A stretch of 64,000 nt of DNA from a bacterium (GCA_030153785.1 JASKLF010000001.1:54353-118352), one strand, 5' to 3'. Counted from the first letter of the stretch, positions 6,258 to 64,000 are shown. Numbers and translations are program-made. The notes: generated by a model from the sequence alone, not told the origin.

Positions 6258-6269
6258 GCTTTTGCCCCC

Positions 6270-8703: not shown

Positions 8704-8715
8704 AGTGCATCACCC

Positions 8716-9510
8716 CTATAATATCCCTTTGCTTTCAAGAAAACTTATAAGCTCGTCAACTGCTTCCTCAGGATTCTTCCCAGAAATTATCTTCCCGTTC
8801 CTCGATAGCTTAGGATAAAAGATCTTTACAACCCTCGTGGGAGAACCTTCAAGCCCTACAAAACTTCTATTTAAGTTTAGGTCATCAACAGTTAACACAG
8901 GAATTTGCATCTCTTTAGCTCGAAGCTTACCAGCAAGGTTAGGCAATCTTGGCTCATTTATCTCCTTAACAACGCTTAAGAGAACGGGTAATTCTGTTTC
9001 AACTACTTCGTATCCACCTTCCACAGCTCGCCTTACCCTTATATACCTTTCCTCAAGACGTTCTATCTTGCTAACATAAGTTAAAGCGGGAATATTAAGC
9101 CAAGAAGCAACGCTTGGTCCAACCTGACCTGTCTCTCCATCGGTAGCCCTTTCACCACAAAATATGAGGTCGAATCCCCCAAGATATCTAATAGCTCCCG
9201 AAAGGGCATATGCAGTTGCCCAAGTGTCAGAACCAGCGAGAAGCTTGTCAGAAAGGAGATATCCTTCATCGCATCCCATTGAAATAGCATCTTTAACCGC
9301 ATCAACCGCCATAAGTGGCCCCATCGAGATCACCGTTATCCTTGCATTACCACCCAATCTTTCCTTTACACGAACCGCCTCCTCGACAGCATACATATCC
9401 AGCGGGTTTAACTCTGCCTCCATCTCGGTTCTTATCATTGTTCCGGTCTTTTCATCCATCTTTACCTTATCTGTAGCCGGAACCTGCTTAACCAAAACGC
9501 ATATCCTCAC
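8716..9510 (-). CDS. etfB: Electron transfer flavoprotein, beta subunit
   Basis: 264 aa whose N-terminus MRICVLVKQVP...NPLDMYAVEEA is the canonical EtfB start. It overlaps the gntR stop by 4 nt. Confidence 0.85.
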   Translation of the reverse strand: MRICVLVKQVPATDKVKMDEKTGTMIRTEMEAELNPLDMYAVEEAVRVKERLGGNARITVISMGPLMAVDAVKDAISMGCDEGYLLSDKLLAGSDTWATAYALSGAIRYLGGFDLIFCGERATDGETGQVGPSVASWLNIPALTYVSKIERLEERYIRVRRAVEGGYEVVETELPVLLSVVKEINEPRLPNLAGKLRAKEMQIPVLTVDDLNLNRSFVGLEGSPTRVVKIFYPKLSRNGKIISGKNPEEAVDELISFLESKGIL

Positions 9511-10238
9511 AGCTCCTCCCTCCCCATCTCAGAAATTCTCCAAAGAACACCTTCCACATGCAACCTCATCAATTCCTCCACCTCTTTAGCTTTCCTCTGG
9601 ATAATAAGCTCCAGTATTTTCTCATGATCCTCAAGAGACTTTTCCATCACTCCCGTAATATAAAGAGACCTGAGTCTGTATGTGTTGATGTAAGATACAA
9701 TGCTTTCCAACATCCTGGAAAGTCTCTCATTACCCGATGAAAACCATATGAAGCGATGAAACTCGGCATCAAGCTCCGAATAAGCAATTACATCCCTTTC
9801 TTCCGCAACCTTCTTCATTCTCTCAAGTTTTCTCTTGAGATTCTCTATCTCCTCTGCTCCACATCTTTTAGCAAAAAGTTTAACTGCAAGTCCTTCTAAA
9901 ACGCTCCTTATCTGAAAAACGTTCTCTATATCCTTTAAAGAAAATTTCGTCACAAAAGCTCCTTGATTAGGAATAAGCTCAACTAATCCTTCAACAGCAA
10001 GACGACGTATAGCCTCCCTCACAGGAGTCCTACTTGTGCCTAACTGAGAAGCAAGCTGGGTTTCAACCAGTCTACTACCACCCTCTAACTCCCCTTTAAG
10101 AATTGCCTCTTTAATAACCCTATAAACTTTCTGATTTAAAGGCTCATCTCTTTCAACTTTCCCTAACGAAATTCCCTCATCACCTCCTGTATACTGTATA
10201 CAGTATACCATAAGGGGAGCAAAATAAAAAGCTTTCAA
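9507..10238 (-). CDS. GntR/FadR-family transcriptional regulator, LldR/LctA-like
   Basis: Winged-HTH (LASQLGTSRTPVREAIRRLAVEGLV) followed by an FCD-type C-terminal domain. The ORF-track start is a TTG overlapping the upstream stop. The first in-frame ATG, at about 10211, is the more plausible start and gives about 234 aa. Confidence 0.8.
   Translation of the reverse strand: MKAFYFAPLMVYCIQYTGGDEGISLGKVERDEPLNQKVYRVIKEAILKGELEGGSRLVETQLASQLGTSRTPVREAIRRLAVEGLVELIPNQGAFVTKFSLKDIENVFQIRSVLEGLAVKLFAKRCGAEEIENLKRKLERMKKVAEERDVIAYSELDAEFHRFIWFSSGNERLSRMLESIVSYINTYRLRSLYITGVMEKSLEDHEKILELIIQRKAKEVEELMRLHVEGVLWRISEMGREEL
10189..10208. promoter_or_regulatory. Perfect 20-nt palindrome GTATAC-T-GTATAC-A-GTATAC. 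Candidate GntR-family operator, likely autoregulatory for the lct cluster.
   Basis: Three GTATAC hexamers spaced by single nucleotides form a perfect inverted repeat lying across codons 2-8 of the gntR ORF. FadR-subfamily operators are palindromes with GT..AC cores. An AGGAGGTG Shine-Dalgarno-like motif follows immediately. Confidence 0.6.
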
Positions 10239-14757: not shown

Positions 14758-15903
14758 TTAAGCTTTTGACCAAAACTCTTTTTTCCAATCAGGATTTATT
14801 ATCCTTATAATTCCAACCGTAACAAGAGGGATAAAGTAAATGGCGAAGAAAACCCAAGCCAATATCCCATATCCCTTCGCCACAAGAGCTATTATTCCAT
14901 AGCGAGCAAAAAGTATAGAAATTATGGCTATTACAGTAGCAATTATTCCCTCCTGAGTTCTGGATAATCCAACCCCCTTTATCTCCTTAAGCTGAACCTC
15001 AACCCTTCTTACTATTGCATGAATCATGCCTGTTCCGGTTTCTATCAATGTCCAAAACACGGCAAGAACATAAAATCCTCGAAGCCAAAGCCCACCTATG
15101 GTTTTCATTATTTCATACCATGGAACCGGAGCATTAACAATCTCAGGTCTCGTGTAAAATCCAAGGAGGCATAACCACGTCAAAAAGAAAGCCATACTTA
15201 CGAGCAAAGAGGAAGTTAACCCCGCCATGAGGGAATCGCTTCTCCTTTCAAGTCTGTCAATGGTAAATAAAACAGCAGGTAAGGCAGGCATATTATAAGC
15301 GAAATACTTAATTCCAGCTATAGAAGCATCCCAAGGAGTCTCCGCGCTAAGCCCTTTCTCAAAAGCCATTCCGATGTCTCCCCAAGCATACTTAAGCGTA
15401 ATACCCCACAAAATAGCATACATAGCATAAAGAATAACAGTACCGATAACCTCAAACCATTCTATAGCAAACCTTCCGTAAAAATGAAGAATTCCTATAG
15501 CTCCTATGACCACCACCGCACTAAGCATATACGGGAGTTTAAGCATGTCTTTCATTATATTTGCAGCCGCAGAACCAACCACAGCTATAACTATGATTGC
15601 CAAAACAATAAATGCTATATCAAATACAGGCCAAAACTTCCATAGAAGACCTTTCACCCAGGTTCTGTAATCGAAAGTTTTATTTATCCTCGCAAGCTCA
15701 TAGGAAAGAAAGGCAGCAATGAAAAAACCAAGCGTTATAAAGACGATTGAGTATACACCATTAACCCCAAACCTACCCCCGAATTCCATTACCTCTCTTC
15801 CTGTCGTAAATCCCCCGCCCATATAAATAGACTGAAAGACTATGGCAGGAAGAAACCAACGGAAAAAAATACCATACTTTCCTTTGCTCTCCACTTTACT
15901 CAC
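14758..15903 (-). CDS. YkvI-family polytopic membrane transporter (amino acid / amine permease-like)
   Basis: 381 aa and about 11 TM segments. The N-terminal [13 protein letters not shown] motif is characteristic of the YkvI family. First gene of a 3-gene operon with two aminotransferases. Confidence 0.6.
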
Positions 15904-23475: not shown

Positions 23476-24834
23476 TTAGCCTCCCCCTTCAGCCGAAAAC
23501 CATTTAGGAATTTCCTTCAACATTTCTCCCATTAAGAAGACTATTGCCTCATCCCCTTCTTTAAGCTGTGTATCACCCCTAGGAATTATCACTTCCCCAT
23601 TTCTAACGATTGCGCCTACAAGAAAACCTTTGGGGAGTAGGAGGTCTCGCAACCTCCCTTCTGTAATCTTAGAACCTTTAGCAACCATAACATCAACTAC
23701 CCTTGCATTCGCTTCTTCTAATAGAGCTATTGACAGGATATCTTCTCGCCAGACGTGTTTAAGTATGGTACTTGCTGTTGCAAGTCTCGGATTAACCACG
23801 GCATCTACTTTTTCAAGGTAGTCTACAAGTTTGACATAATCGGATTTTTTAACCAATGCTATGCCTTTCTTGGCCCCCTGGCTCTTAGCAAGGAAAACCG
23901 AAAGTAGGTTCACCTCATCGTTCTGTGTTAGAGAGACAAAACCATCCACATCCGAAACTCCCTCTTTTTTAAGCAAAGCTAAGTCAGTTCCATCTCCTTG
24001 AATAACCAAGCTTGAAGAAAGTGAATCGGCAAGGACTCCACACCTTTCAGGACTTTTGCTTATTATCTTAATATTCGAAAAGCCAGCACCCTCAAGCATC
24101 TTAGCAAGCCAATAGGTAGTTTCTCCTCCACCCACAAGCATTATCTTTTTGGGCCTTCTCCATTCAGCTCCAAGGTATATAGAAAGTCTGTATAAGTCTT
24201 CCTTTTTACCCACAACAAACAGTTTATCACCTGCCTCGATTTTATCCTGGCCATAGGGCACAAAAGCAGCACTTCCACGAAGAATGCCCACGACCAAAAA
24301 GATACCGTCTATCTCTTTGGAAAGTTCCAGCAAACTTTTACCAACAGCAGGAGCATCGTTGGGAACTCTCAAGAGATAAACCATAACTTTTCCACCAGCG
24401 AATTCAATTACTCGAGAAGCAGGGGGAACTTGAAGGAGGTGAAATATTTCGGAAGCCACAACTCTTGTAGGATTTATAATCAAATCTATCCCTATTTTAC
24501 GAGCAACCATACCTGTAGGCTCATCGTACCCCAGGGTTTGAACCCGTGCCACAACCTTTTTAACCCCAAGATGCTTAGCTATAAGGCAAGCCACTATATT
24601 AGTTTCATCACTATCTGTAACAGCTATTAGCATGTCAGCATCATTAATCCCAGATTCCTCAAGAGCAGAAAGCTGAGAGCCACTTCCGTGAACAACCATA
24701 ACATCTAATCTATCCTGAATTTCGGATATCCTTCTCTCATCCTTTTCTATCACAACTACATCATGGCCCTCTCCGGCAAGCACTTTAGCAATATTAAAAC
24801 CTACCTCACCAGCTCCCACTACTATAACCTTCAT
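23476..24834 (-). CDS. trkA: Trk system K+ uptake regulatory protein (tandem RCK_N/RCK_C)
   Basis: 452 aa with two Rossmann GxGxxG segments (VVGAGEVG, LVGGGETT) each followed by an RCK_C. Overlaps the glmM stop. Confidence 0.85.
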   Translation of the reverse strand: MKVIVVGAGEVGFNIAKVLAGEGHDVVVIEKDERRISEIQDRLDVMVVHGSGSQLSALEESGINDADMLIAVTDSDETNIVACLIAKHLGVKKVVARVQTLGYDEPTGMVARKIGIDLIINPTRVVASEIFHLLQVPPASRVIEFAGGKVMVYLLRVPNDAPAVGKSLLELSKEIDGIFLVVGILRGSAAFVPYGQDKIEAGDKLFVVGKKEDLYRLSIYLGAEWRRPKKIMLVGGGETTYWLAKMLEGAGFSNIKIISKSPERCGVLADSLSSSLVIQGDGTDLALLKKEGVSDVDGFVSLTQNDEVNLLSVFLAKSQGAKKGIALVKKSDYVKLVDYLEKVDAVVNPRLATASTILKHVWREDILSIALLEEANARVVDVMVAKGSKITEGRLRDLLLPKGFLVGAIVRNGEVIIPRGDTQLKEGDEAIVFLMGEMLKEIPKWFSAEGGG

Positions 24835-26144
24835 TCAGATGCCTCCTCATCTATAGAAGAAATAAGTTGGACCAATCTTAAGCCTATTTTATCCACAAGC
24901 ATAGGGTCTTTCCCCTCTACCATAACCCTAAATATTGGTTCCGTACCAGAAGGTCTGACAATTATTCTAAGTGTTTTTTGCCAGCTTTCCGATATTTTTT
25001 CAACCTCCTCCCTCAGTACAGCTGAAGAAGCAACCTTATTTTTATCTTTGACCTTGATATTCCAAACCCTTTGAGGATAACGGGGGAAACTATCTATATA
25101 GTATTCAACGCTCTCTCCAAAGCTCAATACTTTCAAAGCTGTAACCAAGCCATCACCCGTACATACTTCAGGCCTAAAAATTATATGGCCAGAAGGCTCA
25201 CCTCCTAACGGAAGCTCCCTCTTTTTTAACTCTTCATAGACCCATTTATCCCCTACAGGAACCCTTACGAAACCTATTTTCAGGGAAGACAAAACTTCCT
25301 CTAAACCAAGATTACTCATCACCGTGCCCACTACCGCCTTGGGCTTTAGTTTAGAAGCAGCCAAGTAAAGTATAACATCTCCATCAGCTATCATTCCTCG
25401 AGAATCGGAAACAACCACCCTGTCACCATCTCCGTCAAAAGCAAATCCTATGTAAGCTTCTTCCCTAACTACGGCGGAAACCATTTCTCCTGGAGATGTA
25501 GAACCTACACCAGCATTTATATTTATTCCGTCAGGGTCACAACCCACCTTTATAACTTCAGCGCCAAGACTCTCAAAAACCAAAGGAGCTATTTCAAAAA
25601 GAGCACCATTAGCACCGTCAACAACTACTTTTAAGCCATCAAGTTTTACACCCTGCGCAATTTTCAGAAGAAAAGGTAGGTAATATTCCTTTGGATCGAG
25701 CTTATATAGCTTGCCAATATATATTCCCGTTGGCAAGTCCCTATATTCATCAATTTTGCCCTCTATAACCGCTTCTTCCTCAGAAGAAAGCTTTTCTCCA
25801 AATCTGTTAAAAAATTTTACACCGTTATACTCATAAGGGTTATGGGAAGCAGAAACAACCGCCCCTCCATCCGCCTTAAGCTCTCTGACCAACAGAGATA
25901 TCCCTGGGGTAGATAACACACCTACATCAACCACATCACACCCAGAAGAAAGTATACCAGCTATAAGCGCAGAAACTAAGCTGTAACCACTTAAACGCGT
26001 ATCCCTTCCCACAACAACCAAGGGTCTCTCCTTTTCCTCTTTTAACCAAAAACCATAAGCTCTTCCAACCTTTAAAACAACCTCTGGCCTCATGTTTCCA
26101 GAATTGGCTACATCTCTTACTCCATCAGTTCCAAAAAGGCTCAT
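24831..26144 (-). CDS. glmM: Phosphoglucosamine mutase
   Basis: FGTDGVRD N-terminus and the SASHNPYEYNG active-site phosphoserine motif. Confidence 0.9.
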   Translation of the reverse strand: MSLFGTDGVRDVANSGNMRPEVVLKVGRAYGFWLKEEKERPLVVVGRDTRLSGYSLVSALIAGILSSGCDVVDVGVLSTPGISLLVRELKADGGAVVSASHNPYEYNGVKFFNRFGEKLSSEEEAVIEGKIDEYRDLPTGIYIGKLYKLDPKEYYLPFLLKIAQGVKLDGLKVVVDGANGALFEIAPLVFESLGAEVIKVGCDPDGININAGVGSTSPGEMVSAVVREEAYIGFAFDGDGDRVVVSDSRGMIADGDVILYLAASKLKPKAVVGTVMSNLGLEEVLSSLKIGFVRVPVGDKWVYEELKKRELPLGGEPSGHIIFRPEVCTGDGLVTALKVLSFGESVEYYIDSFPRYPQRVWNIKVKDKNKVASSAVLREEVEKISESWQKTLRIIVRPSGTEPIFRVMVEGKDPMLVDKIGLRLVQLISSIDEEASE

Positions 26145-26156
26145 GTCTTATCCCCC

Positions 26157-27356
26157 TCACTTAGCTGTATAAACCTTTACCATACTAGGAGTAACAGAAA
26201 CTATCTCCAAACCGGGAGGAACTGAAACAGATACAGGAAGAATTGCTTCTTTCGTCTCCACCCCAGAAACATCTATGAAAACCCCAATATCTTGGATATT
26301 AAGGGAAGTTATCTTCGTATAAGGCCCCTTTAATCGAAGCTTGATTTGCTTTGGAGAAATATTCCACTTCAAAAACACGCTACTTCCACGAATAGTAACA
26401 GGAACAAGGAATTCTCTTTCAAGAACCTTTTCTTTAAGTTCCACTATAACTTTCACGTTAGAATTATCGACCAGTCTCACTCCTTCAGGAGGTTCAATTG
26501 AAAGTTCAAGAATGCTGGTTCGATCAAGCTCTGAAACATCAACTGGAGAAGTAACTATCTCATTTATTTTCTCTAATACAGACGAAGGCCCCATTATGGT
26601 AACATGAGAAGGAACCGCTTCAACGGAAATAAGATCAAAAGCTTCCTTGGGCTTTCCTTTTATATCAACCTTGACTTTAACGATCTTCGTAGGCCACCCA
26701 GGCTTTAAAGCGAGGGAAACTCTAACTCGCGAAGGAATTATGGTTATCTCGGGAAAAGATGTTTCCGAAATACCTTCCGCCCTTAGTTCCAAAGCAACAT
26801 TTACATCTTTATCAACACCTGCAACATTCAAAGTGGCAAAAACATAAGGGATTTTCTCAACCAAATCCTTGGGCCCTCTAACAACCGCCTTGTTCGGTAC
26901 TATTCTTATCTCGTCTATTAAAAAGCCTTCACTAGGGTTCCCCACAGTTAAAACTCTGACAGGAACTTCTTTATCCACAAGCTCTTCTATAGATATCGCC
27001 AAGAAAGAAGGTCTAACAGCTAAAACGTTAACTCCAGGCGGAACTAAAGTCTGAACCTTAAGTCTATAAACCCCCGGGTTTAACCCTTGAAGGTCTACGA
27101 ATGCTTCAACATCCTTAGATGTCAAACTACCTACCACGTTTTTACTACCTTTCAACCTCACCTCTACACTACTTTCATTATACTCAACCATAACCCTTTC
27201 GGGGGCGTTTTTCACTTTCACAGGGACTTCGATTATTCTTTCAACCACCTGAGGGCCTTCAAGCCAAACAGTATAGTACCAAAACACAATGGAAATCAAT
27301 AAAGACACAATCGCTAAGAAGAGCTTGCTTTCGAGTATTTTCCATATGACCCTCAC
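26157..27356 (-). CDS. cdaR: YbbR-domain protein, CdaA regulator
   Basis: 399 aa with an N-terminal TM then YbbR-like repeats. Conserved position between cdaA and glmM. Confidence 0.75.
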   Translation of the reverse strand: MRVIWKILESKLFLAIVSLLISIVFWYYTVWLEGPQVVERIIEVPVKVKNAPERVMVEYNESSVEVRLKGSKNVVGSLTSKDVEAFVDLQGLNPGVYRLKVQTLVPPGVNVLAVRPSFLAISIEELVDKEVPVRVLTVGNPSEGFLIDEIRIVPNKAVVRGPKDLVEKIPYVFATLNVAGVDKDVNVALELRAEGISETSFPEITIIPSRVRVSLALKPGWPTKIVKVKVDIKGKPKEAFDLISVEAVPSHVTIMGPSSVLEKINEIVTSPVDVSELDRTSILELSIEPPEGVRLVDNSNVKVIVELKEKVLEREFLVPVTIRGSSVFLKWNISPKQIKLRLKGPYTKITSLNIQDIGVFIDVSGVETKEAILPVSVSVPPGLEIVSVTPSMVKVYTAK

Positions 27357-27357
27357 T

Positions 27358-28146
27358 CTATTCCCCCCTCATCCAGCTTAACAATTTATTCATGAGACCG
27401 TTTTTCTGCCTGACGAAATAATACCTTTCTAAAACCCTTCTTAGCGCTTCTTCATTAAGGTCTCTCACTAATCTTCCGTTAACGGCAAAAGAAACTTCCC
27501 CTCTTTCCTCTGATACAACAATAACCCAAGCATCGGTTACCTCACTCAATCCAACAGCAGCCCTGTGTCTCGTCCCTAAACGTCTATCCATATCTCTATC
27601 GGAAAGCGGGAAAAAGCAACTTGCAGCCAAAATTTTATCCTCCTTGATGATAACGCCACCATCATGAAGCGGACTTTTAGGGTTAAATATCGACAAAATA
27701 AGTTCGGCAGAAACCTCGGCATTTAGCTTAACGCCCTTCTCTTGGAAATCCTTTAAACTACTTTTTCTTTCAAGAGCAATTATAGCACCGGTTTTAGTCT
27801 CTTTAAGAGAAGTTATCGCAACAAAGAGCTCGCTTACAATCTGTGCCCCCTTTTTGGAAGAAAGGACACCTCTTTCCCAGAAACCACCCCCCAATTCCTC
27901 AAGGCCTCTTCTAAGCTCTGGCTGAAAAACAATAGGAATGACAATGAAAGACAGATTTATAACTCTTTCAAGGAAATAACTTATAGCCTGAAGCCCTAAA
28001 AATTTGGCTAAACCATTTAGTAACAAAATTAAAAGCAATCCCTTCACAAGCTGAAAGGCCCTCGTCCCTCTAAGAAATAACAAAACCCTGTAGATAACGT
28101 AAGATATTATCAATATATCTGCAATATCTTGCCACCTAAGAATCAT
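27358..28146 (-). CDS. cdaA: Diadenylate cyclase (c-di-AMP synthase)
   Basis: N-terminal TM helices plus a DAC domain carrying the DGA and RHRAA motifs (HDGGVII, GTRHRAA). Confidence 0.9.
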   Translation of the reverse strand: MILRWQDIADILIISYVIYRVLLFLRGTRAFQLVKGLLLILLLNGLAKFLGLQAISYFLERVINLSFIVIPIVFQPELRRGLEELGGGFWERGVLSSKKGAQIVSELFVAITSLKETKTGAIIALERKSSLKDFQEKGVKLNAEVSAELILSIFNPKSPLHDGGVIIKEDKILAASCFFPLSDRDMDRRLGTRHRAAVGLSEVTDAWVIVVSEERGEVSFAVNGRLVRDLNEEALRRVLERYYFVRQKNGLMNKLLSWMRGE

Positions 28147-50050: not shown

Positions 50051-50923
50051 TTACCTTAAAGCCTCCTCCTTAGGGACTATAACTCTCAGATTAGTAAACT
50101 TCACCTTAAGGCTCCCCATTGCTATAATGCCTATGCCACCAGATGAAAGAGATGTATCTCTAACATCAAATATCTTTTTCTCTCCCTCTCCCGGCACGAG
50201 AACATAGCAAGATATCCTGTTGCCTTTGACAACTACCTTCATAGAGCTAAAGCTTAAAGGCCCCTGAGTCCAGTCCTTTATAACCCTCGGCTTGTCATTA
50301 TGCAAGACTTGAAGGGAAAAGGTACCATCTCCTCGATGAAGGAACATATAGAAGTTATTTAAATCTCTGACCCTGAAAAGCAAGCCGTAGATAAGCCAAG
50401 GTCCACTATAACCACTTTCTTTAACAGCTATATCAGCAACATAAGTATAGTCAGGATATCTTTCCATATAAGGCTGGACATTCGCTGGGATACATAAAGC
50501 AGTTAAATCTTTCCGCTCCATCTGAATATAAAGCCCATCATTTGCCACATAAATTTTCCTTTCATAGGTATCCACATGAGGCCATCCATTTCTATTATCG
50601 CTAAAGTCTTCATAAAGAAACTGAAGATCCGGTAATGACTCTATTTCTTCCTCAGTTATTTCACCATCCAAAGCCAAATTAAAAAACTTATGTTGAAGCT
50701 TTGGATCTACCTGAGCTATATAGTTTATATAAATCCTTTCAAGGTCATCAAGCTCTCTATCTTCGCCAAGCTTCTTAATAAAGGAAAATACCTCTGGATT
50801 CGGTTCTCTCTGACCGGCGAAAACACTCTGCGCGTAATTTAAAGCGGGATTTCCCACCGCCCAAGCGACTGAAAACAACACCAAAAGTGCACAAACCATT
50901 ACAAAAACCCTAATTCCCCGCAC
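50051..50923 (-). CDS. Hypothetical exported protein with signal peptide
   Basis: 290 aa with an N-terminal hydrophobic leader (VFVMVCALLVLFSVAWA). No recognisable domain. Confidence 0.5.
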   Translation of the reverse strand: MRGIRVFVMVCALLVLFSVAWAVGNPALNYAQSVFAGQREPNPEVFSFIKKLGEDRELDDLERIYINYIAQVDPKLQHKFFNLALDGEITEEEIESLPDLQFLYEDFSDNRNGWPHVDTYERKIYVANDGLYIQMERKDLTALCIPANVQPYMERYPDYTYVADIAVKESGYSGPWLIYGLLFRVRDLNNFYMFLHRGDGTFSLQVLHNDKPRVIKDWTQGPLSFSSMKVVVKGNRISCYVLVPGEGEKKIFDVRDTSLSSGGIGIIAMGSLKVKFTNLRVIVPKEEALR

Positions 50924-55989: not shown

Positions 55990-57192
55990 ATGGACTGGGA
56001 AAGCAGATTCACAGCGTTAGCAAGGGATCGGGTCAAGCCTTCGGGCATCGAGAAGATGCTGAAGCTCATGAGAGCACCGGGAACCATATCTTTGGCGCCG
56101 GGAGAACCTGATCCCAAACTTTATCCTACAGAAGAATTCAAAGAAGCAATTGCCGAAGTAATCGACGAACAGGGCCCTCACGCTTTAAGATATACCATAG
56201 CGGGAGGGTTACCCGAGCTCAAAACCTTTACAATGAACTGGTTCAAAGAATGGGGAATAATAAACAAAAACCTCAATGAGGAGAATATCGTATTCACCCT
56301 CGGCTCCCAGCAGGCACTCGAGATATTAGCTCAGACCTTCCTCGAAAAGGGAGATAAAATAGCGGTTGAAGCTCCTACTTATGCGGAGGCAATGTTAATC
56401 TTCAAGAAATACGAAGCCAGTTTTGTCTCCATTCCCATGGACAAAAACGGCCTCATAGTAGAGGAACTTGAAAAGGCGCTTCAAAAGGAGAGAATAAAGT
56501 TTCTCTACACCATAACCAATTTTCATAACCCCGCTGGGGTGACCCTCGCATGGGAAAGAAGAGAGAGATTGGTTGAGCTCGCGAAAAAGTATGACTTCTT
56601 CATTGTCGAAGATGACCCCTATCACTTCATGAGCTATGAAAGCGATGCCCTACCTTCGATAAACACGATAGATACGGAAAGAGTTCTATCTTTGGGAAGC
56701 TTTTCCAAAGTCATAGTTCCAGGCCTAAGAATAGGATGGATCATGGGACCCAAAGAGGTTGTGGAAAAAACCACACTTGTCAAATACTCCATGGAACTAT
56801 GTCCTCCAATGGTCTTACAAAGTGCACTACATAAAATTCTCTTGAAGAAGAACCTTAAGGAACATGTTAACAGGCTCAGAAGCGTATATAGAGAAAAAAG
56901 AGACGCTCTGGCTAAAGGATTAAACGAGCATCTCAAGCCACTTGGAACAGAGTATGTGATACCCCAAGGTGGATTCTTCTTCTGGGTTAAGCTTCCCGAG
57001 AAGGTCGATTCGGAAGAGTTAACCCTTAAGGCAGTCCAAGAATACAAGGTAGGAATCGTTCCCGGAACAGGTTTCTTCGTAGAACCTGAAAAAGGGAAAA
57101 ATTACATCCGTTTAGCATTTTCCTTACTCGAACCTGAAACACTAATGGAAGGAAGCGCAAGACTTGGAAAAGCTTTAAAAAGCATGCTTTAA
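55990..57192 (+). CDS. Class I/II PLP aminotransferase of the LysN / 2-aminoadipate-aromatic / aspartate aminotransferase family
   Basis: 400 aa with SFSKVIVPGLRIGW (PLP lysine). No HTH. Last gene of the thr cluster. Confidence 0.75.
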   Translation: MDWESRFTALARDRVKPSGIEKMLKLMRAPGTISLAPGEPDPKLYPTEEFKEAIAEVIDEQGPHALRYTIAGGLPELKTFTMNWFKEWGIINKNLNEENIVFTLGSQQALEILAQTFLEKGDKIAVEAPTYAEAMLIFKKYEASFVSIPMDKNGLIVEELEKALQKERIKFLYTITNFHNPAGVTLAWERRERLVELAKKYDFFIVEDDPYHFMSYESDALPSINTIDTERVLSLGSFSKVIVPGLRIGWIMGPKEVVEKTTLVKYSMELCPPMVLQSALHKILLKKNLKEHVNRLRSVYREKRDALAKGLNEHLKPLGTEYVIPQGGFFFWVKLPEKVDSEELTLKAVQEYKVGIVPGTGFFVEPEKGKNYIRLAFSLLEPETLMEGSARLGKALKSML

Positions 57193-57194
57193 AA

Positions 57195-57240
57195 CAAAAA
57201 AGGGCTACCCCTTCCGAGTTTTAGGGTAGCCCTTTTTTCT
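57195..57240. terminator. Bidirectional rho-independent terminator (AAAAAAGGGCTACCC...GGGTAGCCCTTTTTT)
   Basis: 9-bp GC stem flanked by an A-run on one side and a T-run on the other. It sits between convergent gene ends. Confidence 0.75.
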
Positions 57241-57253
57241 TCCTTTAATTCTC

Positions 57254-58747
57254 CTACTTTTTAAGGGCTATCCTCTTTTCCTCTCCACCAGAAAGTTTTT
57301 CCAATATACCGCCTAACATGCTTACCAATTGCTGAGACAATCTCTCTGCTTCCTCATAGTGTTTTAATGCCGAACCTTTATCCTTCCTTTTAATGGCATC
57401 AATAACCTTCTTGCCAGCTTCATGAAGCTTCCTATGGGGCTCCTCTATGGCCCTCCAATCAGAAGATACAGCTTCGATAGTCACCGGCACGGCATAATAA
57501 AAGTGCCCAAAGGCACATCTCGTATGATCTACCTGAAGGGGAAGGAGCTCCCCTTTATCTACTATATCCCTGAGAGTCTTAATCCAATTTTTATGAGCTG
57601 ACAAAGCCTTATTGATAACACCTATAATCTCCTCCTTAGAAACGGTATAATACCCTTCTTTCAAACTCTCAAAGAGCTCCTTCATAACTTCAGAAAATAT
57701 ATTATCAAGTTCGTAAATGCGTCTTGACTGCTCCAACAGGTCTTGAGAAACCTTTTCTATGGTTTCGGCAAGCGCGCTCAAATGCTCGGAATCCTTAGCC
57801 AAGGAATCCATGGCAGCTTTGACTTCCTCAGATGAGGCGGTAATAGTTTCTGCCGATTGGCTTATTTCCTCTATGCTGGTTGAAATATCATGGAACATTT
57901 CTATGTTCTTCCTTATAGTCCCGTTGATAACATCTATTTTCTCGCTCATTCTGGAAGTAGCCTCGCTTGTTGCACGAAGGCTCTTTTCACTTTCTCCCGC
58001 CTTCTCTTGAATAGTCTTAGTAAATTGACGCATCTCATTGAGGTTATTCCTCGTGCTTTCAGCAAGCTTCCTTATCTCCTCAGCAACCACAGCAAAGCCC
58101 CTTCCTGCCTCCCCCGCTCTGGCCGCTTCTATGGCAGCGTTAAGAGCGAGAAGGTTCGTTTGCTCTGCAATCTGCTCAACACTTCCAACGATATTTTCAA
58201 CCTTCCTTATAAGCCCTATAAGCTCCCCCATCGTATTTGCCATGACCTCAGTTTGAGAAACGAGAACCTCTTTCAAGGAGTTTACTTCGGCAAGAAGCTT
58301 TATGCTCTCATCATTCTTCTGCTGGAGAAGCTCAGCACCTTCCCTTACGCTACCGAGCTTATCGGTAATAACTTGAATAGAGCGAGTAACTTCGTCCATG
58401 CCCGCTGTGGTTTCCTCAACGACCGCCAAATTAGACTGGCTTAAGGAGGCCATCTCATCAACGAGCTCCTTGAGGCGACTGGATATGTGGCTTATTTCCA
58501 CATCAAATCTGCTCATATCAGTAACGGTATCAAGAAGCCTTCGAGCCACCTCCCCAGCCTTAGCCTCAACATCAAATATGGATTCAAAGATCTTTAAAAG
58601 TCGCTCGTGCGGCCCATAAGCTGCTTTAGGTTTTTCCTTTATCTTGCCCTTCCTCATTGCATCCACATAATCCATTATTGTCAAAGCTTCTTTACAGCGT
58701 GAAGAAAAACCCCCAAAGCTTAGCTTCCCAAACATTCCCTTAAACAC
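57254..58747 (-). CDS. Soluble (no TM) methyl-accepting chemotaxis protein with a C-terminal chemoreceptor zinc-binding (CZB) domain
   Basis: MCP signalling domain ([32 protein letters not shown]). No hydrophobic N-terminal segments. C-terminal HKNWIKTLR...[11 protein letters not shown] fits the CZB H-x3-W...C-x-F-G pattern. Confidence 0.8.
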
Positions 58748-58751
58748 CTCC

Positions 58752-59675
58752 TTAATATTCCCTTTCCTCCCTTGAATAGGGCTTCATTAAAGCAACAGGA
58801 GCCCCAATTCTTCTTCTCACACCCTCGCTGGATATGAAGGAAAGAACCGCTATGGTCAAGGCATAAGGGAGCATCATGAGGAGGTGGGGAGAAATAGCAG
58901 AACCCATAGCCTGAATCCTAAGTTGCAAGGAGGCAACTCCTCCAAAGAGATAAGAAGCCAATAAAGCCCTCAATGGGTCCCATGCAGAGAAGATAACGAG
59001 AGCTACAGCGATCCATCCCCTTCCCGCGCTCATATTCTCTATCCACATGGACGTATAAGCCAATGAGAGATATGCTCCTCCCAAAGAAGTTAACATCCCT
59101 CCAAAGGTAACGTAAATATATCTCGTTTTAAAAACATTTATTCCAACGGCATCGGCAGCTTTAGGGTCTTCACCAACCGCCCTTAAATTCATACCGAACC
59201 TCGTTTTGAATATATAAAACCAGGAGAGAGGGACAAGAATATAAGCCAGATAGACCAAGGGATCGTGATAAAAAAGGACATCTCCAACAAAAGGAATCTT
59301 GCTCAAAAGAGGAACTGGAACGGGTGAAAACTGGGGAGCCGTTTTTCCTATAAAGGATTGGCCATAATAACCGCTCAAGCCCATACCAAGCATGGTCAAA
59401 GCCAATCCAGCTACCACTTGATTAACCCTCAAAGTCACGGTTAAGAAGGCATAAAGAAAAGCTAACATTCCACCAACTAAAAGAGCTAACAATACGCCAA
59501 ACCATACCGAAGAGGTAACATAGGAGCCAACAAAACCCGCCAAAGCCCCAACAAGCATCAGTCCCTCTAAGCCGAGATTAAGAACTCCCGACCTTTCAGC
59601 AAAGATTTCTCCTAACGTGGCATAAAGAAGTGGAGTCCCCGCTCTAATCGCAGCCGTAAAGATGGCTTCAAGCAA
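58752..59675 (-). CDS. ABC transporter permease (BMP/nucleoside-sugar type)
   Basis: 307-aa polytopic protein. Its operon position matches the second permease of CUT2-like nucleoside transporters. Confidence 0.8.
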
Positions 59676-59681
59676 TAGCGC

Positions 59682-60737
59682 TCACCTCACAACCCTTACT
59701 TTATACCTTATCAGAACATCTCCAATTAAAACGCAAATAAACAAGATAGCTTGAAAAATATATACTACGGAAATGGGAAGCTTCATGACTATCTGGAGAA
59801 TTTCACAACCCACGAATATGCCCCCTAAGAAGAAAGAAACGAGAAGCGCGGCTACAGGATGTAGCCTAGAAAGCCAAGCTACTATTATAGCGGTATAACC
59901 ATAACCCGGCGAAAAACCATGCTGTAACCGATGCTGAACCCCCATAACATAGAGCGCTCCCGAAAGACCGGCAATACCACCGCTAATCATCAGCGTTAGA
60001 ATTATGTTCTTCCTAATATTCATGCCAGCACAGGAAGCCGCATCTGGATTGTCCCCTATAACCTTTATCTCAAACCCCCACCTGGTGCGCTCTAAAATCA
60101 CTCTCAACACAAGAGCCAAGGCTATAGGAACCAATATTCCCATGTGGACCTTTCCCCATATATAAGGAAGTTTTGCACTATCAGGGAAAATGGGTGTCAT
60201 GGGGAAACCGAAGCTTCCAGGGTCCTTCCACGCTCCATAAACCAGATAGTCAGTCCAAAGTATAGCTATATAGTTAAGCATTAAAGTTACAACTATTTCA
60301 TCTGCACCAAGGAAGGCCTTCATCAAACCGGGGAGAAAAGCCCATATACTACCACCAATGAAACCACCTAAGGCTAAAAGAGGAATAAGAAGGGCTGAAT
60401 GCAAAGATGGTAGAAAGAACAAGGCTAAGAAGGTTGTAAACATGGCTCCCACATAAAACTGACCCTCCCCTCCTATGTTCCAAACCTTCATCTTAAAGGC
60501 TAATATCAATCCGAGTGCTATCAATGAAAGGGTGGAGAACTTTATTAAAGTTCCCTCTAAACCAACCTTCCGCATAAAGGCCCAAATGAACATCGTTTTA
60601 TAAGCCCCCACAGGGTCCCTACCCGTAAAGAACATGAACAAAGTGAAAATCAAAAAGGCCAAACCCACAGAGAGAAGCATCATCGAAATTTCGAAAAGTT
60701 TGCTGCTTTCAACCCTAGGTTCAAAACTCAATCTCAT
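59682..60737 (-). CDS. ABC transporter permease
   Basis: 351-aa polytopic protein, first permease of the operon. Confidence 0.8.
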   Translation of the reverse strand: MRLSFEPRVESSKLFEISMMLLSVGLAFLIFTLFMFFTGRDPVGAYKTMFIWAFMRKVGLEGTLIKFSTLSLIALGLILAFKMKVWNIGGEGQFYVGAMFTTFLALFFLPSLHSALLIPLLALGGFIGGSIWAFLPGLMKAFLGADEIVVTLMLNYIAILWTDYLVYGAWKDPGSFGFPMTPIFPDSAKLPYIWGKVHMGILVPIALALVLRVILERTRWGFEIKVIGDNPDAASCAGMNIRKNIILTLMISGGIAGLSGALYVMGVQHRLQHGFSPGYGYTAIIVAWLSRLHPVAALLVSFFLGGIFVGCEILQIVMKLPISVVYIFQAILFICVLIGDVLIRYKVRVVR

Positions 60738-62283
60738 CCCAATTCTCCCCCATTCCCGCCATTAGCATGCCAATTTCGTGAAGGTACTCTTCCTTCGGAG
60801 GAAAATCACCATAGAGCTTTCCCTCATATATAACCTTGACTCTATCCGAGAGAGCAAAAATCTCCTCTAAATCACCAGCTATAAGTAAAACCGCTGTCCC
60901 TTTGGATGCAGCCTCAAGGATTCTTCCATATACGAATTCCATTGCACCAATATCAAGCCCCCATGTGGGATGAAAAGCGATAAGTAGCTTCTTCTTCCCT
61001 TCAAGTTCCCTTGCAAGAATCAGCCTTTGAAGATTTCCTCCGGAAAGAAGTTTTACGGGCATATTCTTTCCCGAAATTTTTATATCGTATTTATCAATCA
61101 GAGAATCAGCAACCCTATCCATATACTCCAAATTCAAAAAGGGTCCCCTCGAAAAGGGAGGAACCCTATAGCTTTTAAGAAAGAGATTCTCAACCACCGT
61201 AAGGTTAGGAGCTATGCCATATTTTCTTCTATCTTCGGGGATAAATCCCCCACCCTTATCTATAAAAAACCTCGCTCCCTTATTCGTTATATCTTCCCCA
61301 TCCAAAAAGACCTTACCGTTCGAAGCTTTCCTCAAACCTACCAAGACTTCCGCAAGTTCCCTTTGGCCATTACCAGCAACACCAGCTATACCAAGGATTT
61401 CTCCCTCTCTTATGGAAAAGGAAATACCCTTCAAGGCTTTTATTCCTTTATCATTATAGGCCTCAAGGTTTTCTACCTTAAAAACAACATCCCCTATAGT
61501 CTTAGTCGTCTTTTCCATCTTAAAAAGCACTTCCCTACCAACCATCATCTTGGCAAGCTCAGCAGGAGAGGTCTTATCCTTATCTACAGTGTTTACAACA
61601 ACTCCCTTTCGCATCACCGTTATCCTGTCAGATATCTCCATAACCTCATTAAGCTTGTGAGATATGAAAACTATTGCCTTTCCTTCCTCTTTAAACCTCC
61701 TCAAAGTACCAAAAAGAGCTTGAATTTCCTGAGGGGTTAAAACGGAAGTAGGCTCATCGAGTATTAAAATGTCCACATCCCGCATAAGAAGCTTCAGTAT
61801 CTCAACCTTTTGCATTTCTCCAGCAGAAAGCTGCCAAACTTTCGCGTAGGGGTCAACCGTAAAACCATATTCCTTAGATATCCTTTCAAATTTTAAAGCT
61901 AATTCCTTAAGGGAGACTCCCTCAATCCCTAAAGATACATTCTCAAGAACAGAAAGAGAGGGAACCAAAGTGAAGCTCTGCTGGACCATGCCTATACCTA
62001 AAGAGAGGGCTTTCGCAGGAGAAGTTATCTTTTCCCTCCTCCCCCTTATCCAAATCTCTCCCTCATCAGGCTGATAGAGGCCATAAAGAATATTAACCAG
62101 AGTGGTTTTGCCTGCCCCATTCTCTCCCAAAAGGGCATGCACTTCACCAAATTTCAGATCGAAATTTACCCTTTCATTAGCAACAACCCCTGGAAATCTT
62201 TTGACTATTCCCCTTAATTGGACTGCGAAACCATCAGGGGAAGGAAGGGAAAACCCCCCTTCCCCGTTACCATGTATCTCCAT
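60721..62283 (-). CDS. ABC transporter ATP-binding protein with duplicated NBD (CUT2 family)
   Basis: Two Walker A motifs (GENGAGKTT and GVAGNGQRE) and two LSGG signatures. Confidence 0.9.
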   Translation of the reverse strand: MEIHGNGEGGFSLPSPDGFAVQLRGIVKRFPGVVANERVNFDLKFGEVHALLGENGAGKTTLVNILYGLYQPDEGEIWIRGRREKITSPAKALSLGIGMVQQSFTLVPSLSVLENVSLGIEGVSLKELALKFERISKEYGFTVDPYAKVWQLSAGEMQKVEILKLLMRDVDILILDEPTSVLTPQEIQALFGTLRRFKEEGKAIVFISHKLNEVMEISDRITVMRKGVVVNTVDKDKTSPAELAKMMVGREVLFKMEKTTKTIGDVVFKVENLEAYNDKGIKALKGISFSIREGEILGIAGVAGNGQRELAEVLVGLRKASNGKVFLDGEDITNKGARFFIDKGGGFIPEDRRKYGIAPNLTVVENLFLKSYRVPPFSRGPFLNLEYMDRVADSLIDKYDIKISGKNMPVKLLSGGNLQRLILARELEGKKKLLIAFHPTWGLDIGAMEFVYGRILEAASKGTAVLLIAGDLEEIFALSDRVKVIYEGKLYGDFPPKEEYLHEIGMLMAGMGENWDEIEF

Positions 62284-63362
62284 TATTTCTGAGGAATTTT
62301 CCCCACTACACCTTCTACAAAGTAGCTCATCTCACGGAGTTCGGCGTCTGTAGCAACCTTACCATCGGGAATCCTTAATTTGCCCTCCTGATCCAATATG
62401 GGTCCAGTGAAAGGATGGAATTTACCAGAAACTATAAGCTCTTTATACTTCTCCACTTCCTTTCTAACATCTTCGGGAACCATTGGTCCAAAGGGAGCCA
62501 AATCGACCACTCCCTTATCCATACCCCACCATATGTCCTCGCTTTTCCAAGTACCATCTAAAACATTCTTGACAACATAAGCATATATTACTCCCCAATT
62601 CCATATAGGAGCCGTAAGATGCGCCTTTGGAGCAAAACTACTCATGTCCGAGTTATATCCTATAGAATAAACACCTTTTTCCTGCGCCGCTTGCTGAGGA
62701 GCTGGAGAATCCTGATGCTGAGCTATAACATCACAGCCGGCCTCGATCAGACTCAAAGCTGCCTCCTTTTCAGTAGCAGGGTCGTACCAAGTATTGCTCC
62801 ATACCACATGAACCGTAGCCTTTGGGTTAACCTTCCTAACCCCAAGAGTAAAAGCATTAATACCCCTTATAACCTCGGGGATAGGATGTGCCGCTACATA
62901 CCCAATTTTATTGCTCTTCGTCATCCTGCCAGCTACTATGCCACTCAAGAATCGAGCCTCATACATCCTACCAAAATAAATCCCAACGTTTTTGGCCATC
63001 TTAAATCCGGAGCAATGCATAAAAACCACATTCGGATACTTCTTCGCCACTTCAATGGTAGGGTCCATAAATCCATAGCTGGTAGTAAATACCACCTTAC
63101 ACCCCATAGCTACAAGATGTTCTATGGCTCTTGCCGCTTCAGCTCCTTCGGGAACCGACTCAAGATAGATGGTTTCGATATTAGGAAATTGCTTCTCGAG
63201 ATACTTCCTGCCCTGGTCGTGGGCATAAGTCCAACCAGCATCTCCAACGGGACCGACGTAGATAAAACCTACCTTAAACTTTTCTTCAGCGGCAAAAGCA
63301 GATATACCGAAAGCCCCTAAAAAGATCGAAAAAACTACCAACCCTACTAATGCCTTCCTCAA
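62283..63362 (-). CDS. BMP-family (PnrA/Med-like) ABC substrate-binding lipoprotein. Probable purine nucleoside receptor.
   Basis: Signal peptide then KFKVGFIYVGPVGDAGWTYAHDQG, the BMP family hallmark N-terminus. Confidence 0.85.
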   Translation of the reverse strand: MRKALVGLVVFSIFLGAFGISAFAAEEKFKVGFIYVGPVGDAGWTYAHDQGRKYLEKQFPNIETIYLESVPEGAEAARAIEHLVAMGCKVVFTTSYGFMDPTIEVAKKYPNVVFMHCSGFKMAKNVGIYFGRMYEARFLSGIVAGRMTKSNKIGYVAAHPIPEVIRGINAFTLGVRKVNPKATVHVVWSNTWYDPATEKEAALSLIEAGCDVIAQHQDSPAPQQAAQEKGVYSIGYNSDMSSFAPKAHLTAPIWNWGVIYAYVVKNVLDGTWKSEDIWWGMDKGVVDLAPFGPMVPEDVRKEVEKYKELIVSGKFHPFTGPILDQEGKLRIPDGKVATDAELREMSYFVEGVVGKIPQK

Positions 63363-63377
63363 GAGAGAAACACCTCC

Positions 63378-64000
63378 CTATTCTATTATTTCAAGATTTA
63401 ACAAATACTTCCTCTGGTCATCGCTTAGCCTAATATTGTGTTCTCTTTCTGGAATTTGGACATCCTTTTCAATACCAAAAAGGGGCGTAGAGAAATACCT
63501 AAGACCATTATCGTTTATAAAGGTAACTATTCTTTTAAATTCCGGATACCGCTTGGAAAGTTTAACGGCAGCCGCCACATTATGCCCAGAAGATATGCCA
63601 CAAAGAATTCCCTCGAGACGGGCCAACTTCCTTGCCATCTCAATAGCCTCGTCAGATGTGGTAAGTATAACACCATCTATGAGAGAAAGGTCAAGATTGG
63701 GAGGAATAAAACCATCACCTATCCCTTCTATCTTGTGAGACCCCCATTGCCCTTTAGACAAAAAGGGAGCTTCTTGAGGTTCGGCTGTATAAACCTTTAC
63801 CGAAGGGTCCTGCTCTTTCAAATAACGAGCTACCCCTGAGACGGTTCCTCCCGTTCCCTGGGTTTGGACTAAGGCATCCAGTTTCCCTTCCATCTGTTCC
63901 CAGATTTCAGGCCCAGTAGTGTAATAGTGAGCCAAGGGGTTATTGGGATTATCGTATTGAGAAACCACAAAATACTTATCAGGATCCTGGGAAACGATTT
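63378..64000 (-). CDS. cysK: Cysteine synthase (O-acetylserine sulfhydrylase), C-terminal part. The gene continues beyond the window end.
   Basis: GTGGTVSGV glycine loop and the fold-type II C-terminal region. No start codon in the window. Confidence 0.8.
   Translation of the reverse strand, partial: IVSQDPDKYFVVSQYDNPNNPLAHYYTTGPEIWEQMEGKLDALVQTQGTGGTVSGVARYLKEQDPSVKVYTAEPQEAPFLSKGQWGSHKIEGIGDGFIPPNLDLSLIDGVILTTSDEAIEMARKLARLEGILCGISSGHNVAAAVKLSKRYPEFKRIVTFINDNGLRYFSTPLFGIEKDVQIPEREHNIRLSDDQRKYLLNLEIIE

Follow-up and report, generated by a model that had tools for sequence, protein, structure and literature searches.

A soluble CZB-domain chemoreceptor gene ends a predicted purine-base importer operon in a narrow clade of uncultured thermophilic anaerobes

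Soluble chemoreceptors with a C-terminal CZB domain are not new: they represent the commonest CZB architecture, and homologues of H. pylori TlpD are common in Clostridia (bioRxiv 10.64898/2026.01.16.699579). The mechanism of zinc and redox sensing by the CZB domain has been described for this receptor class (PMC6715182, PMC8262984, bioRxiv 10.64898/2026.07.03.735341). [quoted passage not shown] Among transporters, nucleoside ABC importers of the PnrA (TmpC), BmpD and NupN type combine a Bmp binding protein with a fused double-NBD ATPase and a pair of BPD_transp_2 permeases. In Halobacterium, the transducer genes of the BasT/BasB and CosT/CosB pairs are located in an operon or cluster with an ABC-type binding-protein gene (PMC7289035). 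Both transducers, BasT and CosT, sit in the membrane and are contacted from outside the cell by the binding protein once it has taken up its ligand; a full importer is not part of these systems.

The locus described here lies in a 64-kb stretch of DNA (the window, positions 1 to 64000) and combines a soluble CZB chemoreceptor with a Bmp-family importer. The gene row given in an initial annotation (cysK, a substrate-binding protein, a double-NBD ATPase, two permeases and an MCP) was recovered in full, with all genes on the minus strand. The 3' part of cysK runs from 63378 to beyond 64000, where it is cut by the window end (PALP domain, E=7e-36). In the same organism, a full-length copy of 351 aa (L091) reaches 371 bits against TIGR01139 cysK, for which the cut-off is 351; cysK is the O-acetylserine sulfhydrylase gene. 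It is followed by bmp2, encoding a Bmp-family substrate-binding protein (62283-63362; Pfam Bmp, E=6e-75), and by the ATPase gene with two ABC_tran stretches (60721-62283; E=1e-48), with a 1-nt overlap between its start and the bmp2 stop (gap -1). Permease 1 (59682-60737; BPD_transp_2, E=4e-44) shares 17 nt with the ATPase gene (gap -17) and is separated by 6 nt from permease 2 (58752-59675; BPD_transp_2, E=5e-38), the final transporter gene, which ends with a TAA at 58752-58754. The chemoreceptor gene, encoding a soluble MCP of 493 aa, occupies 57254-58735 (MCPsignal, E=4e-33; CZB, E=1e-12).

The earlier statement that cysK directly precedes the transporter holds in that cysK adjoins bmp2, but the operon starts further upstream, with a PnrA/BmpD-like Bmp gene (bmp1) located past the window end on the same organism's contig. 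cysK thus sits between two Bmp binding-protein genes, and the order in the operon is bmp1, cysK, bmp2, ATPase, permease, permease, chemoreceptor. With a Bmp binding protein, a double-NBD ATPase and a pair of BPD_transp_2 permeases encoded in one predicted operon, the transporter matches the architecture of the PnrA, BmpD and NupN importers. In contrast with these, the operon here encodes two binding proteins, and cysK is embedded in it.

Structure matches point to the type of substrate recognized by bmp2. Over ~333 residues, bmp2 is 52% identical to AtzT of Pseudomonas sp. ADP (PDB 6pi5, E=2e-116) and 50% identical to the Brucella melitensis Bmp lipoprotein (PDB 3s99, E=2e-109), both of which are Bmp-family proteins that bind purine bases, and PnrA was absent among its structure matches at E<=1e-5. 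On this basis, we predict that bmp2 binds purine bases (adenine/guanine type) rather than nucleosides in the manner of PnrA. Of the site in AtzT and 3s99, bmp2 retains the aromatic sandwich as well as the Ser and Glu residues. Eight of the nine putative binding-site positions are as in adenine-bound 3s99, and the ninth is contacted via the backbone (residues from PMC6834077); agreement with adenine-bound 3s99 includes the His/Asp pair as well as the Arg/Gly positions. Where AtzT has Asn218/Asn220, bmp2 has His216/Asp218, so its base preference may differ from that of AtzT (guanine over adenine). The N-terminus of bmp2 is hydrophobic, as a signal or anchor segment would be. The out-of-window bmp1, for its part, matches BmpD, BmpA and PnrA. 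The nearest orthologues of the transporter outside the clade (permease 72%, binding protein 75% identical) are found in xanthine-dehydrogenase/amidohydrolase clusters, and a bmp2 orthologue with identical site residues lies within such a cluster. Matches of all transporter parts to the NCBIfam 'putative B6 ABC transporter' models were far below the cut-offs, and a vitamin B6 transporter was rejected. Of the initial assignment to a PnrA-type nucleoside ABC transporter, the Bmp-family importer architecture can be kept, but the binding protein in the window appears to be of the purine-base type. The transporter is therefore better annotated as a putative purine-base/nucleoside importer.

The chemoreceptor has the same sequence as an NCBI protein of 493 aa annotated as 'CZB domain-containing protein'. 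Its layout consists of a short N-terminal helix, a coiled-coil hairpin of ~44 heptads and a C-terminal CZB domain. Over 19-residue stretches, its Kyte-Doolittle mean peaks at 0.92, compared with 2.4-2.6 for the permeases. The AlphaFold model (pLDDT 86.5; helices 12-28, 41-206, 208-358 and 367-482) is an all-helical hairpin with a CZB bundle and has no periplasmic ligand-binding domain. Hydropathy and model thus agree with the previous description of a transmembrane-less MCP, and a search for a cryptic transmembrane region or ligand-binding domain found neither. The idea that residues 1-60 form a hidden ligand-binding domain was rejected, as the model places a single short helix there (12-28), and no purine-binding domain was found among the Pfam domains or in the model. 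The best fold matches were the MCP cytoplasmic domains of B. subtilis McpB/YvaQ and T. maritima TM1143, and the MA hairpin aligns end to end with TM1143 and McpB. The MCPsignal core (PF00015, residues 169-318, 57782-58231) includes the hairpin tip, whose residues are invariant in 99 family members, and methylation-site-like motifs are present at residues 104 and 300.

The C-terminal CZB domain reported earlier was borne out by a PF13682 match above the cut-off (57389-57595) and by a complete 3His/1Cys motif. The published pattern Hxx[WFYL]x21-28Cx[LFMVI]Gx[WFLVI]x18-27HxxxH matches residues 381-438, and none of the putative ligands H381, C407, H434 and H438 varies among 99 homologues. A family search returned >7000 matches, with same-length members in Clostridia and Atribacterota. 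By its domains and predicted fold, the chemoreceptor is a member of the widespread and already described TlpD/McpA-like soluble CZB class: like TlpD and McpA it has no membrane segment and carries an MA hairpin followed by the CZB domain, and it shares with them the complete motif and the conserved kinase-interface tip residues. Points of difference are the lack of a PAS domain, in place of which it has the short N-terminal helix with a family-conserved signature (C14/E16/G30/H43), and the location of its gene within an ABC importer operon. The hairpin is about twice as long as that of TlpD, and methylation-site-like motifs are present, whereas TlpD has no canonical methylation sites. With a GC content of 0.44 and a GC3 of 0.46, the gene is similar to its neighbours and shows no sign of having been inserted recently by horizontal transfer.

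The start of the chemoreceptor gene determines how closely it follows the transporter. The longest open reading frame begins with GTG at 58747, which yields the 4-nt gap of the initial annotation. However, this GTG falls within AAGGAGGTG, the putative ribosome-binding site read from the sequence (58745-58753, minus strand), which overlaps the permease 2 stop codon and is followed, 9 nt on, by an ATG at 58735. Because the GTG is inside the ribosome-binding site and the ATG yields a protein exactly as long as the NCBI model (493 aa), the ATG is likely the true start, and the gap to the permease stop likely 16 nt. The same layout of stop, ribosome-binding site and start is seen in two relative loci (L001 and L003). 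Downstream of the chemoreceptor, we found a predicted intrinsic terminator by folding and terminator scan (57191-57243, minus strand; 16-bp main stem). Its minimum free energy is -28.7 kcal/mol (z -4.75), and 0/200 shuffles fold as well. As the stem is flanked by an A-run and a U-run, it can act both ways, ending the operon and also serving a convergent aminotransferase gene. An Rfam scan of the window and three relatives' loci at the gathering threshold revealed no riboswitch or leader. The only Rfam matches were tRNA genes in the relatives' loci, each of which carries one shortly upstream of bmp1.

The arrangement is real and rare, and is confined to one narrow clade. The initial annotation had suggested checking whether the linkage between MCP and ABC transporter is conserved in relatives; it is present in four diverged lineages (chemoreceptor identity 69-75%), but only where the entire 20-kb neighbourhood is syntenic. 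These lineages form a narrow group of uncultured thermophilic anaerobes, which NCBI labels 'Synergistetes bacterium' or 'bacterium 42_11'. The linkage is missing in five members of the chemoreceptor family at 37-47% identity, and family members of the same length and architecture have other, unrelated neighbours in Thermatribacter, Caldatribacterium, Fusibacter and two other genomes. The nearest transporter orthologues beyond the clade have no chemoreceptor gene beside them. A Bmp transporter was near 0/80 sampled generic chemoreceptor loci, and a chemoreceptor near 0/80 sampled Bmp-transporter loci, making 160 loci in which the linkage is not seen. The generic chemoreceptor loci came from a contig search with the family alignment, in which the patterns were universal hairpin-tip peptides, and were reused as background; the only true family member in that search was the Fusibacter one (L007). 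A metagenome search with the single chemoreceptor sequence returned no relatives.

Synonymous divergence between the four lineages has reached saturation (dS >2), and the neighbourhood upstream has changed among them: cysK lies between the two Bmp genes in L003 and is missing from that place in L001 and L002, and a glycosyltransferase has been inserted. Retention of the junction despite this divergence could thus reflect selection for co-expression and not mere inertia. The best reading of the linkage is a lineage-specific gene-order event.

Taken together, we consider it reasonably probable that this is an ordinary TlpD/McpA-like zinc/redox chemoreceptor placed under a purine-salvage promoter, with shared expression as its sole link to the importer. 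In one lineage, the chemoreceptor gene would have come to lie at the end of an ABC importer operon for purine salvage. Read-through from the transporter promoter would supply its transcript, and its translation would start from a ribosome-binding site of its own. The CZB four-helix bundle would hold Zn2+ through three His and one Cys, and the receptor, as has been shown for H. pylori TlpD and Salmonella McpA, would sense cytoplasmic Zn2+ availability or oxidants via this domain and signal to CheA/CheW. Zinc/redox sensing, which had been offered as an alternative in the initial annotation, agrees with the literature on this receptor class, and both zinc binding and a CheA response are predicted by analogy. 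The transporter would import purine bases through bmp2 and probably nucleosides through bmp1. Importer and chemoreceptor would be tied through their expression, with no physical or ligand coupling between them.

The adjacency could instead be accidental, the chemoreceptor having its own promoter (e.g. for a motility sigma factor) in the 3' end of permease 2 and being regulated with the flagellar/chemotaxis regulon rather than with the transporter. In many bacteria, sigma-28/SigD promoters drive chemoreceptor genes. A sigma-70-like match is present within permease 2 at 59236-59209, and our scans used known consensus sequences, which may not be those of the uncultured lineage; permease 2 may contain a weak or non-sigma-70 promoter. 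However, promoter-like matches in the sigma-70 scan were at chance level (11 versus 10.1 expected), with none credible between permease 2 and the chemoreceptor. No sigma-28-type site (TAAA-N14-17-CCGATA) was found near the junction, the sole match in the window being at 31601, and a three-lineage alignment upstream of the chemoreceptor start contained no conserved third-position block except the ribosome-binding site. No terminator was found between the two genes either, as scan matches were no more numerous than in shuffled sequence, so read-through would occur anyway. An independent promoter and terminator, named at the outset as what would split the MCP from the transporter, were thus not detected at the junction, and we regard accidental adjacency as unlikely. 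The sequence signs of an operon are present (genes on one strand, short gaps, neither terminator nor promoter detected internally, a terminator at the end). With no terminator or credible promoter at the junction and a strong terminator after the chemoreceptor, co-transcription of importer and chemoreceptor is plausible.

A closer relation has also been proposed, as transport-coupled or metabolism-dependent taxis, for which we found no evidence: the receptor family and the transporter orthologues occur apart, and the linkage is seen only in full synteny. By analogy with PTS-dependent taxis, the chemoreceptor might read transporter activity or imported purines, e.g. by docking on the cytoplasmic face of the ATPase or permease, and mediate purine taxis. 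The tight junction kept in four lineages despite saturated synonymous divergence speaks for such coupling, as does the rarity of the linkage elsewhere, which is hence no trivial recurrent neighbourhood. The clade's chemoreceptors also carry a short extra glycine-rich N-terminal stretch that is not found in other family members. Yet apart from the 17-residue N-terminal helix, the sole sensor module is the CZB domain, whose ligands are Zn2+ and oxidants, and the protein contains no domain for purines. Family members of the same architecture work in genomes without an adjacent Bmp transporter, transporter orthologues work without a chemoreceptor, and the linkage is restricted to wholly syntenic neighbourhoods. 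We therefore consider functional coupling very improbable. The clustering of a chemoreceptor gene with an ABC-type binding-protein gene does recall BasT and CosT, but those are membrane-bound transducers with an extracellular part, whereas neither hydropathy nor the AlphaFold model gave a membrane segment here; being cytoplasmic, the chemoreceptor cannot touch an extracytoplasmic binding protein. A different possibility is that the chemoreceptor does not serve swimming, and has another chemosensory output (c-di-GMP, biofilm) or is a remnant in a non-motile organism. CZB domains regulate c-di-GMP enzymes too (PMC8262984), an HD-GYP protein gene lies 16 nt after the Thermatribacter velox homologue, and no che or flagellar genes were found in the window, although 64 kb is too small to judge their absence. 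This alternative appears quite improbable in light of the strong purifying selection on the gene (dN/dS ~0.06 versus relatives, a rough value as dS is saturated), and the invariant CheA/CheW-binding hairpin tip and the methylation-site-like motifs speak for a functional receptor within a canonical Che array.

On present evidence, the locus is mainly of corrective value: the receptor is of a known class, the importer annotation is refined and the gene order is clade-specific. The chances are slim that entry of the chemoreceptor into the purine-salvage regulon served a purpose, with redox/zinc taxis on only during purine scavenging or with docking on the importer reporting flux. To our knowledge, an ABC-transporter counterpart of PTS-dependent taxis has not been described, and functional coupling, if true, would be a new route from uptake into chemotaxis. 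The locus also offers a thermophilic CZB receptor with a long (~44-heptad) hairpin, which may be useful for structural and biochemical work on CZB signalling.

The minus strand of the window carries a compact gene row (57254-64000), and domain matches bore out its described composition: a PALP-domain enzyme (cysK; 63378 onward, truncated by the window end), a Bmp-family substrate-binding protein (bmp2; 62283-63362), a double-NBD ATPase with two ABC_tran domains (60721-62283), two BPD_transp_2 permeases (permease 1, 59682-60737; permease 2, 58752-59675) and a CZB chemoreceptor (57254..58735; MCPsignal at residues 169-318, CZB at 385-449). The intergenic gaps from cysK through the chemoreceptor are, in order, 15, -1, -17, 6 and 16 nt. 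The 4-nt gap first reported before the chemoreceptor holds for its longest ORF, which starts at GTG 58747, 4 nt past the permease 2 stop. This GTG falls within the ribosome-binding site AAGGAGGTG, immediately 3' of the permease 2 TAA stop. ATG 58735, 9 nt 3' of that site, leaves a gap of 16 nt and gives a 493-aa protein, the same length as an identical sequence that NCBI lists as 'CZB domain-containing protein [Synergistetes bacterium]' and, in addition, under 'bacterium 42_11'. The stop, ribosome-binding site and start are laid out unchanged in two diverged relatives. These results confirm the initial annotation as an observation, with its start codon, substrate class and operon extent corrected.

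The importer had been called a PnrA-type nucleoside transporter, which did not hold for bmp2: its matches are AtzT (6pi5, E=2e-116; 52% identity) and the Brucella 'basic membrane lipoprotein' 3s99 (E=2e-109; 50%), and PnrA is absent from them at E<=1e-5. Guanine co-purifies with AtzT (Kd 110 nM), which binds adenine at 2.5 uM, and the deposited 3s99 structure contains adenine (PMC6834077). When nine AtzT positions were compared across bmp2 and 3s99, bmp2 agreed with 3s99 at eight of the nine, including a His/Asp pair in place of AtzT Asn218/Asn220; the ninth, Phe98 in AtzT and Tyr in bmp2, contacts the ligand via its backbone. Outside the clade, the transporter's nearest orthologues (permease 72% and binding protein 75% identical, site residues identical) sit directly 3' of xanthine-dehydrogenase-family subunits, two amidohydrolases and a dihydroorotate-dehydrogenase-like gene, a purine-catabolism cluster. 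At these loci (L094, L096, L097; 1-9921), the Bmp transporter orthologues and purine genes form one cluster, which resembles a locus for anaerobic purine degradation equipped with an importer of its own. The PnrA assignment does fit a second Bmp gene, bmp1, with which the operon begins outside the window on a contig of the same organism and which matches BmpD, BmpA and PnrA. From the bmp2 matches and site residues, the orthologue cluster and the bmp1 matches, the importer is best described as a predicted purine-base plus probable nucleoside salvage system. The cysK gene, a true cysK by TIGR01139, does directly precede bmp2 (15 nt) as reported, and is not the operon start, bmp1 lying upstream. 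It lies between the two binding-protein genes here (63378-64000) and in the related lineage L003 (4293-5345); relatives L001/L002 have a 235-nt gap there instead (L001 5131-5366).

Scans of 56900-64000 returned 11 promoter-like matches against 10.1 in shuffles (the host promoter consensus may differ) and six terminator-like matches against 8.2, neither more frequent than in shuffles; no such signal above chance separates permease 2 from the chemoreceptor. Their 16-nt gap contains no hairpin, nor room for one, and no sigma-28-type site was found near the junction, with the same proviso on the host lineage's promoter consensus. Immediately 3' of the chemoreceptor lies a very stable A-run/U-run hairpin (-28.7 kcal/mol, z -4.75). 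The sequence is consistent with co-transcription of chemoreceptor and importer, which is plausible. To the right of the window end (L090 3090-3290), bmp1 is preceded by a tRNA gene whose promoter is a perfect TTGACA-17-TATAAT; a terminator-like hairpin follows the tRNA gene, and bmp1 starts only ~25 nt past the U-run of this hairpin. Because no evident promoter for the importer operon can be seen upstream of bmp1 in L090, transcription of the operon may rely on read-through of the hairpin.

Elsewhere in the window, a minus-strand row at 4956-10238 (LarA-like lactate racemase, FAD-linked oxidase, EtfA/EtfB, GntR/FCD regulator) resembles the electron-bifurcating lactate dehydrogenase/Etf clusters of anaerobes. 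Another at 24831-28146 (-) shows the classical cdaA-cdaR-glmM arrangement (DAC-domain di-adenylate cyclase, YbbR-domain protein, phosphoglucosamine-mutase-like gene), with a 500-aa TPR protein just upstream. Three ORFs had no Pfam match at E<=1e-5 (448-1185 (+), 245 aa; 14758-15903 (-), 381 aa; 50051-50923 (-), 290 aa), the last of which keeps its position in relatives (L001 17801-18673).

The chemoreceptor was described as soluble and CZB-bearing, and this stood. Hydropathy revealed no cryptic membrane region (top 19-residue mean 0.92, against 2.4-2.6 in the permeases). The AlphaFold model (99 homologues as input, mean pLDDT 86.5) predicts a short helix at residues 12-28, then a coiled-coil hairpin with arms 41-206 and 208-358, and lastly a helical CZB bundle spanning 367-482; this fold leaves no space where a ligand-binding domain could be hidden. 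The best fold matches to the chemoreceptor are B. subtilis McpB/YvaQ and T. maritima TM1143, the latter alignable to the hairpin end to end. Since both arms measure ~22 heptads from the tip Glu209, we infer that the hairpin belongs to the long, roughly 44-heptad class. It carries two methylation-site-consensus motifs, AVVEETTA (residue 104) and ASSEEVKA (residue 300). The published CZB motif was found at residues 381-438; both the predicted zinc ligands (H381, C407, H434 and H438) and the kinase-interface tip are invariant across the 99 homologues. Outside the Pfam domains, an N-terminal signature (residues 1-43, window 58606-58735) is common to the ~490-aa soluble CZB chemoreceptor family, with E16 invariant across 99 sequences and C14, G30 and H43 kept in 90% or more of them; it may form a further metal or redox site, or pack against the CZB domain.

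This receptor type is already known. More than 7000 database proteins match it at E<=1e-10, and of the best 120, which come from Clostridia, Atribacterota and others, nearly all are 480-500 aa long and share both domains. Chemoreceptors that carry the CZB at their C-terminus account for about half of all CZB proteins; Clostridia commonly encode TlpD homologues, and the N-terminal region varies, often taking the form of a helix extension (TlpD structure preprint, bioRxiv 10.64898/2026.01.16.699579). In the mechanism proposed for the class, oxidants or bioavailable Zn2+ are sensed at a Cys-His3 zinc site, and CheA activity shifts in response (PMC6715182, PMC8262984, bioRxiv 10.64898/2026.07.03.735341).

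The permease-chemoreceptor junction recurs, with a gap of 15-18 nt, in four lineages of one clade: the window organism (L090-L093), L001/L002 (chemoreceptor 75% identical), L003 (69%) and L180 (75%, on a contig of only 3.1 kb). Synonymous sites are saturated among them and chemoreceptor dN/dS is about 0.06, so the gene is under strong purifying selection. The whole 20 kb, including convergent aminotransferase-asd-aspartokinase genes downstream and NikR-desulfoferrodoxin genes upstream, is syntenic in the three lineages with enough flank (the L180 contig being too short), and the linkage itself is therefore not distinguishable as selected. Outside the clade it was absent: five chemoreceptor-family members at 37-47% identity (Thermatribacter velox, a Caldatribacterium MAG, genomes P0015 and P0020, and Fusibacter) lie in unrelated contexts, and neither the 72% transporter orthologues nor a Mesotoga orthologue has a chemoreceptor nearby. 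Across 80 generic chemoreceptor loci taken from species-representative genomes, no Bmp binding protein or permease lay within 10 kb, and no chemoreceptor lay within 6 kb at any of 80 metagenomic Bmp-permease loci (permease identity 47-62%; 60 of them with 1.5 kb or more of sequence downstream). As had been suspected, the arrangement is rare. At L004 10001-12833, the T. velox homologue, at 47% the closest outside the clade, has an HD/HD-GYP protein 16 nt 3' of it, as do L005 and L006, a hint that CZB chemoreceptors may be tied to c-di-GMP turnover in Atribacterota.

The initial interpretation is supported in part: the linkage is rare and co-transcription plausible, but functional coupling is unsupported and the receptor class already known. 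Chemoreceptor genes are paired with ABC-type binding proteins in Halobacterium (BasT/BasB, CosT/CosB), but those transducers are membrane-bound (PMC7289035), whereas the window chemoreceptor is cytoplasmic, and they are no model for this locus. Binding proteins act outside the cytoplasmic membrane, out of a cytoplasmic receptor's reach, and the family keeps the same architecture, with CZB as its sensor, in every context where it is found. A physical or flux-sensing link between chemoreceptor and importer is unlikely, and nothing supports it. Rarity and confinement to one syntenic clade point to a single gene-order event rather than a conserved functional module. The locus puts a member of a known receptor class in an unusual, clade-specific position, and the only consequence would most likely be that receptor expression follows the purine-salvage promoter.
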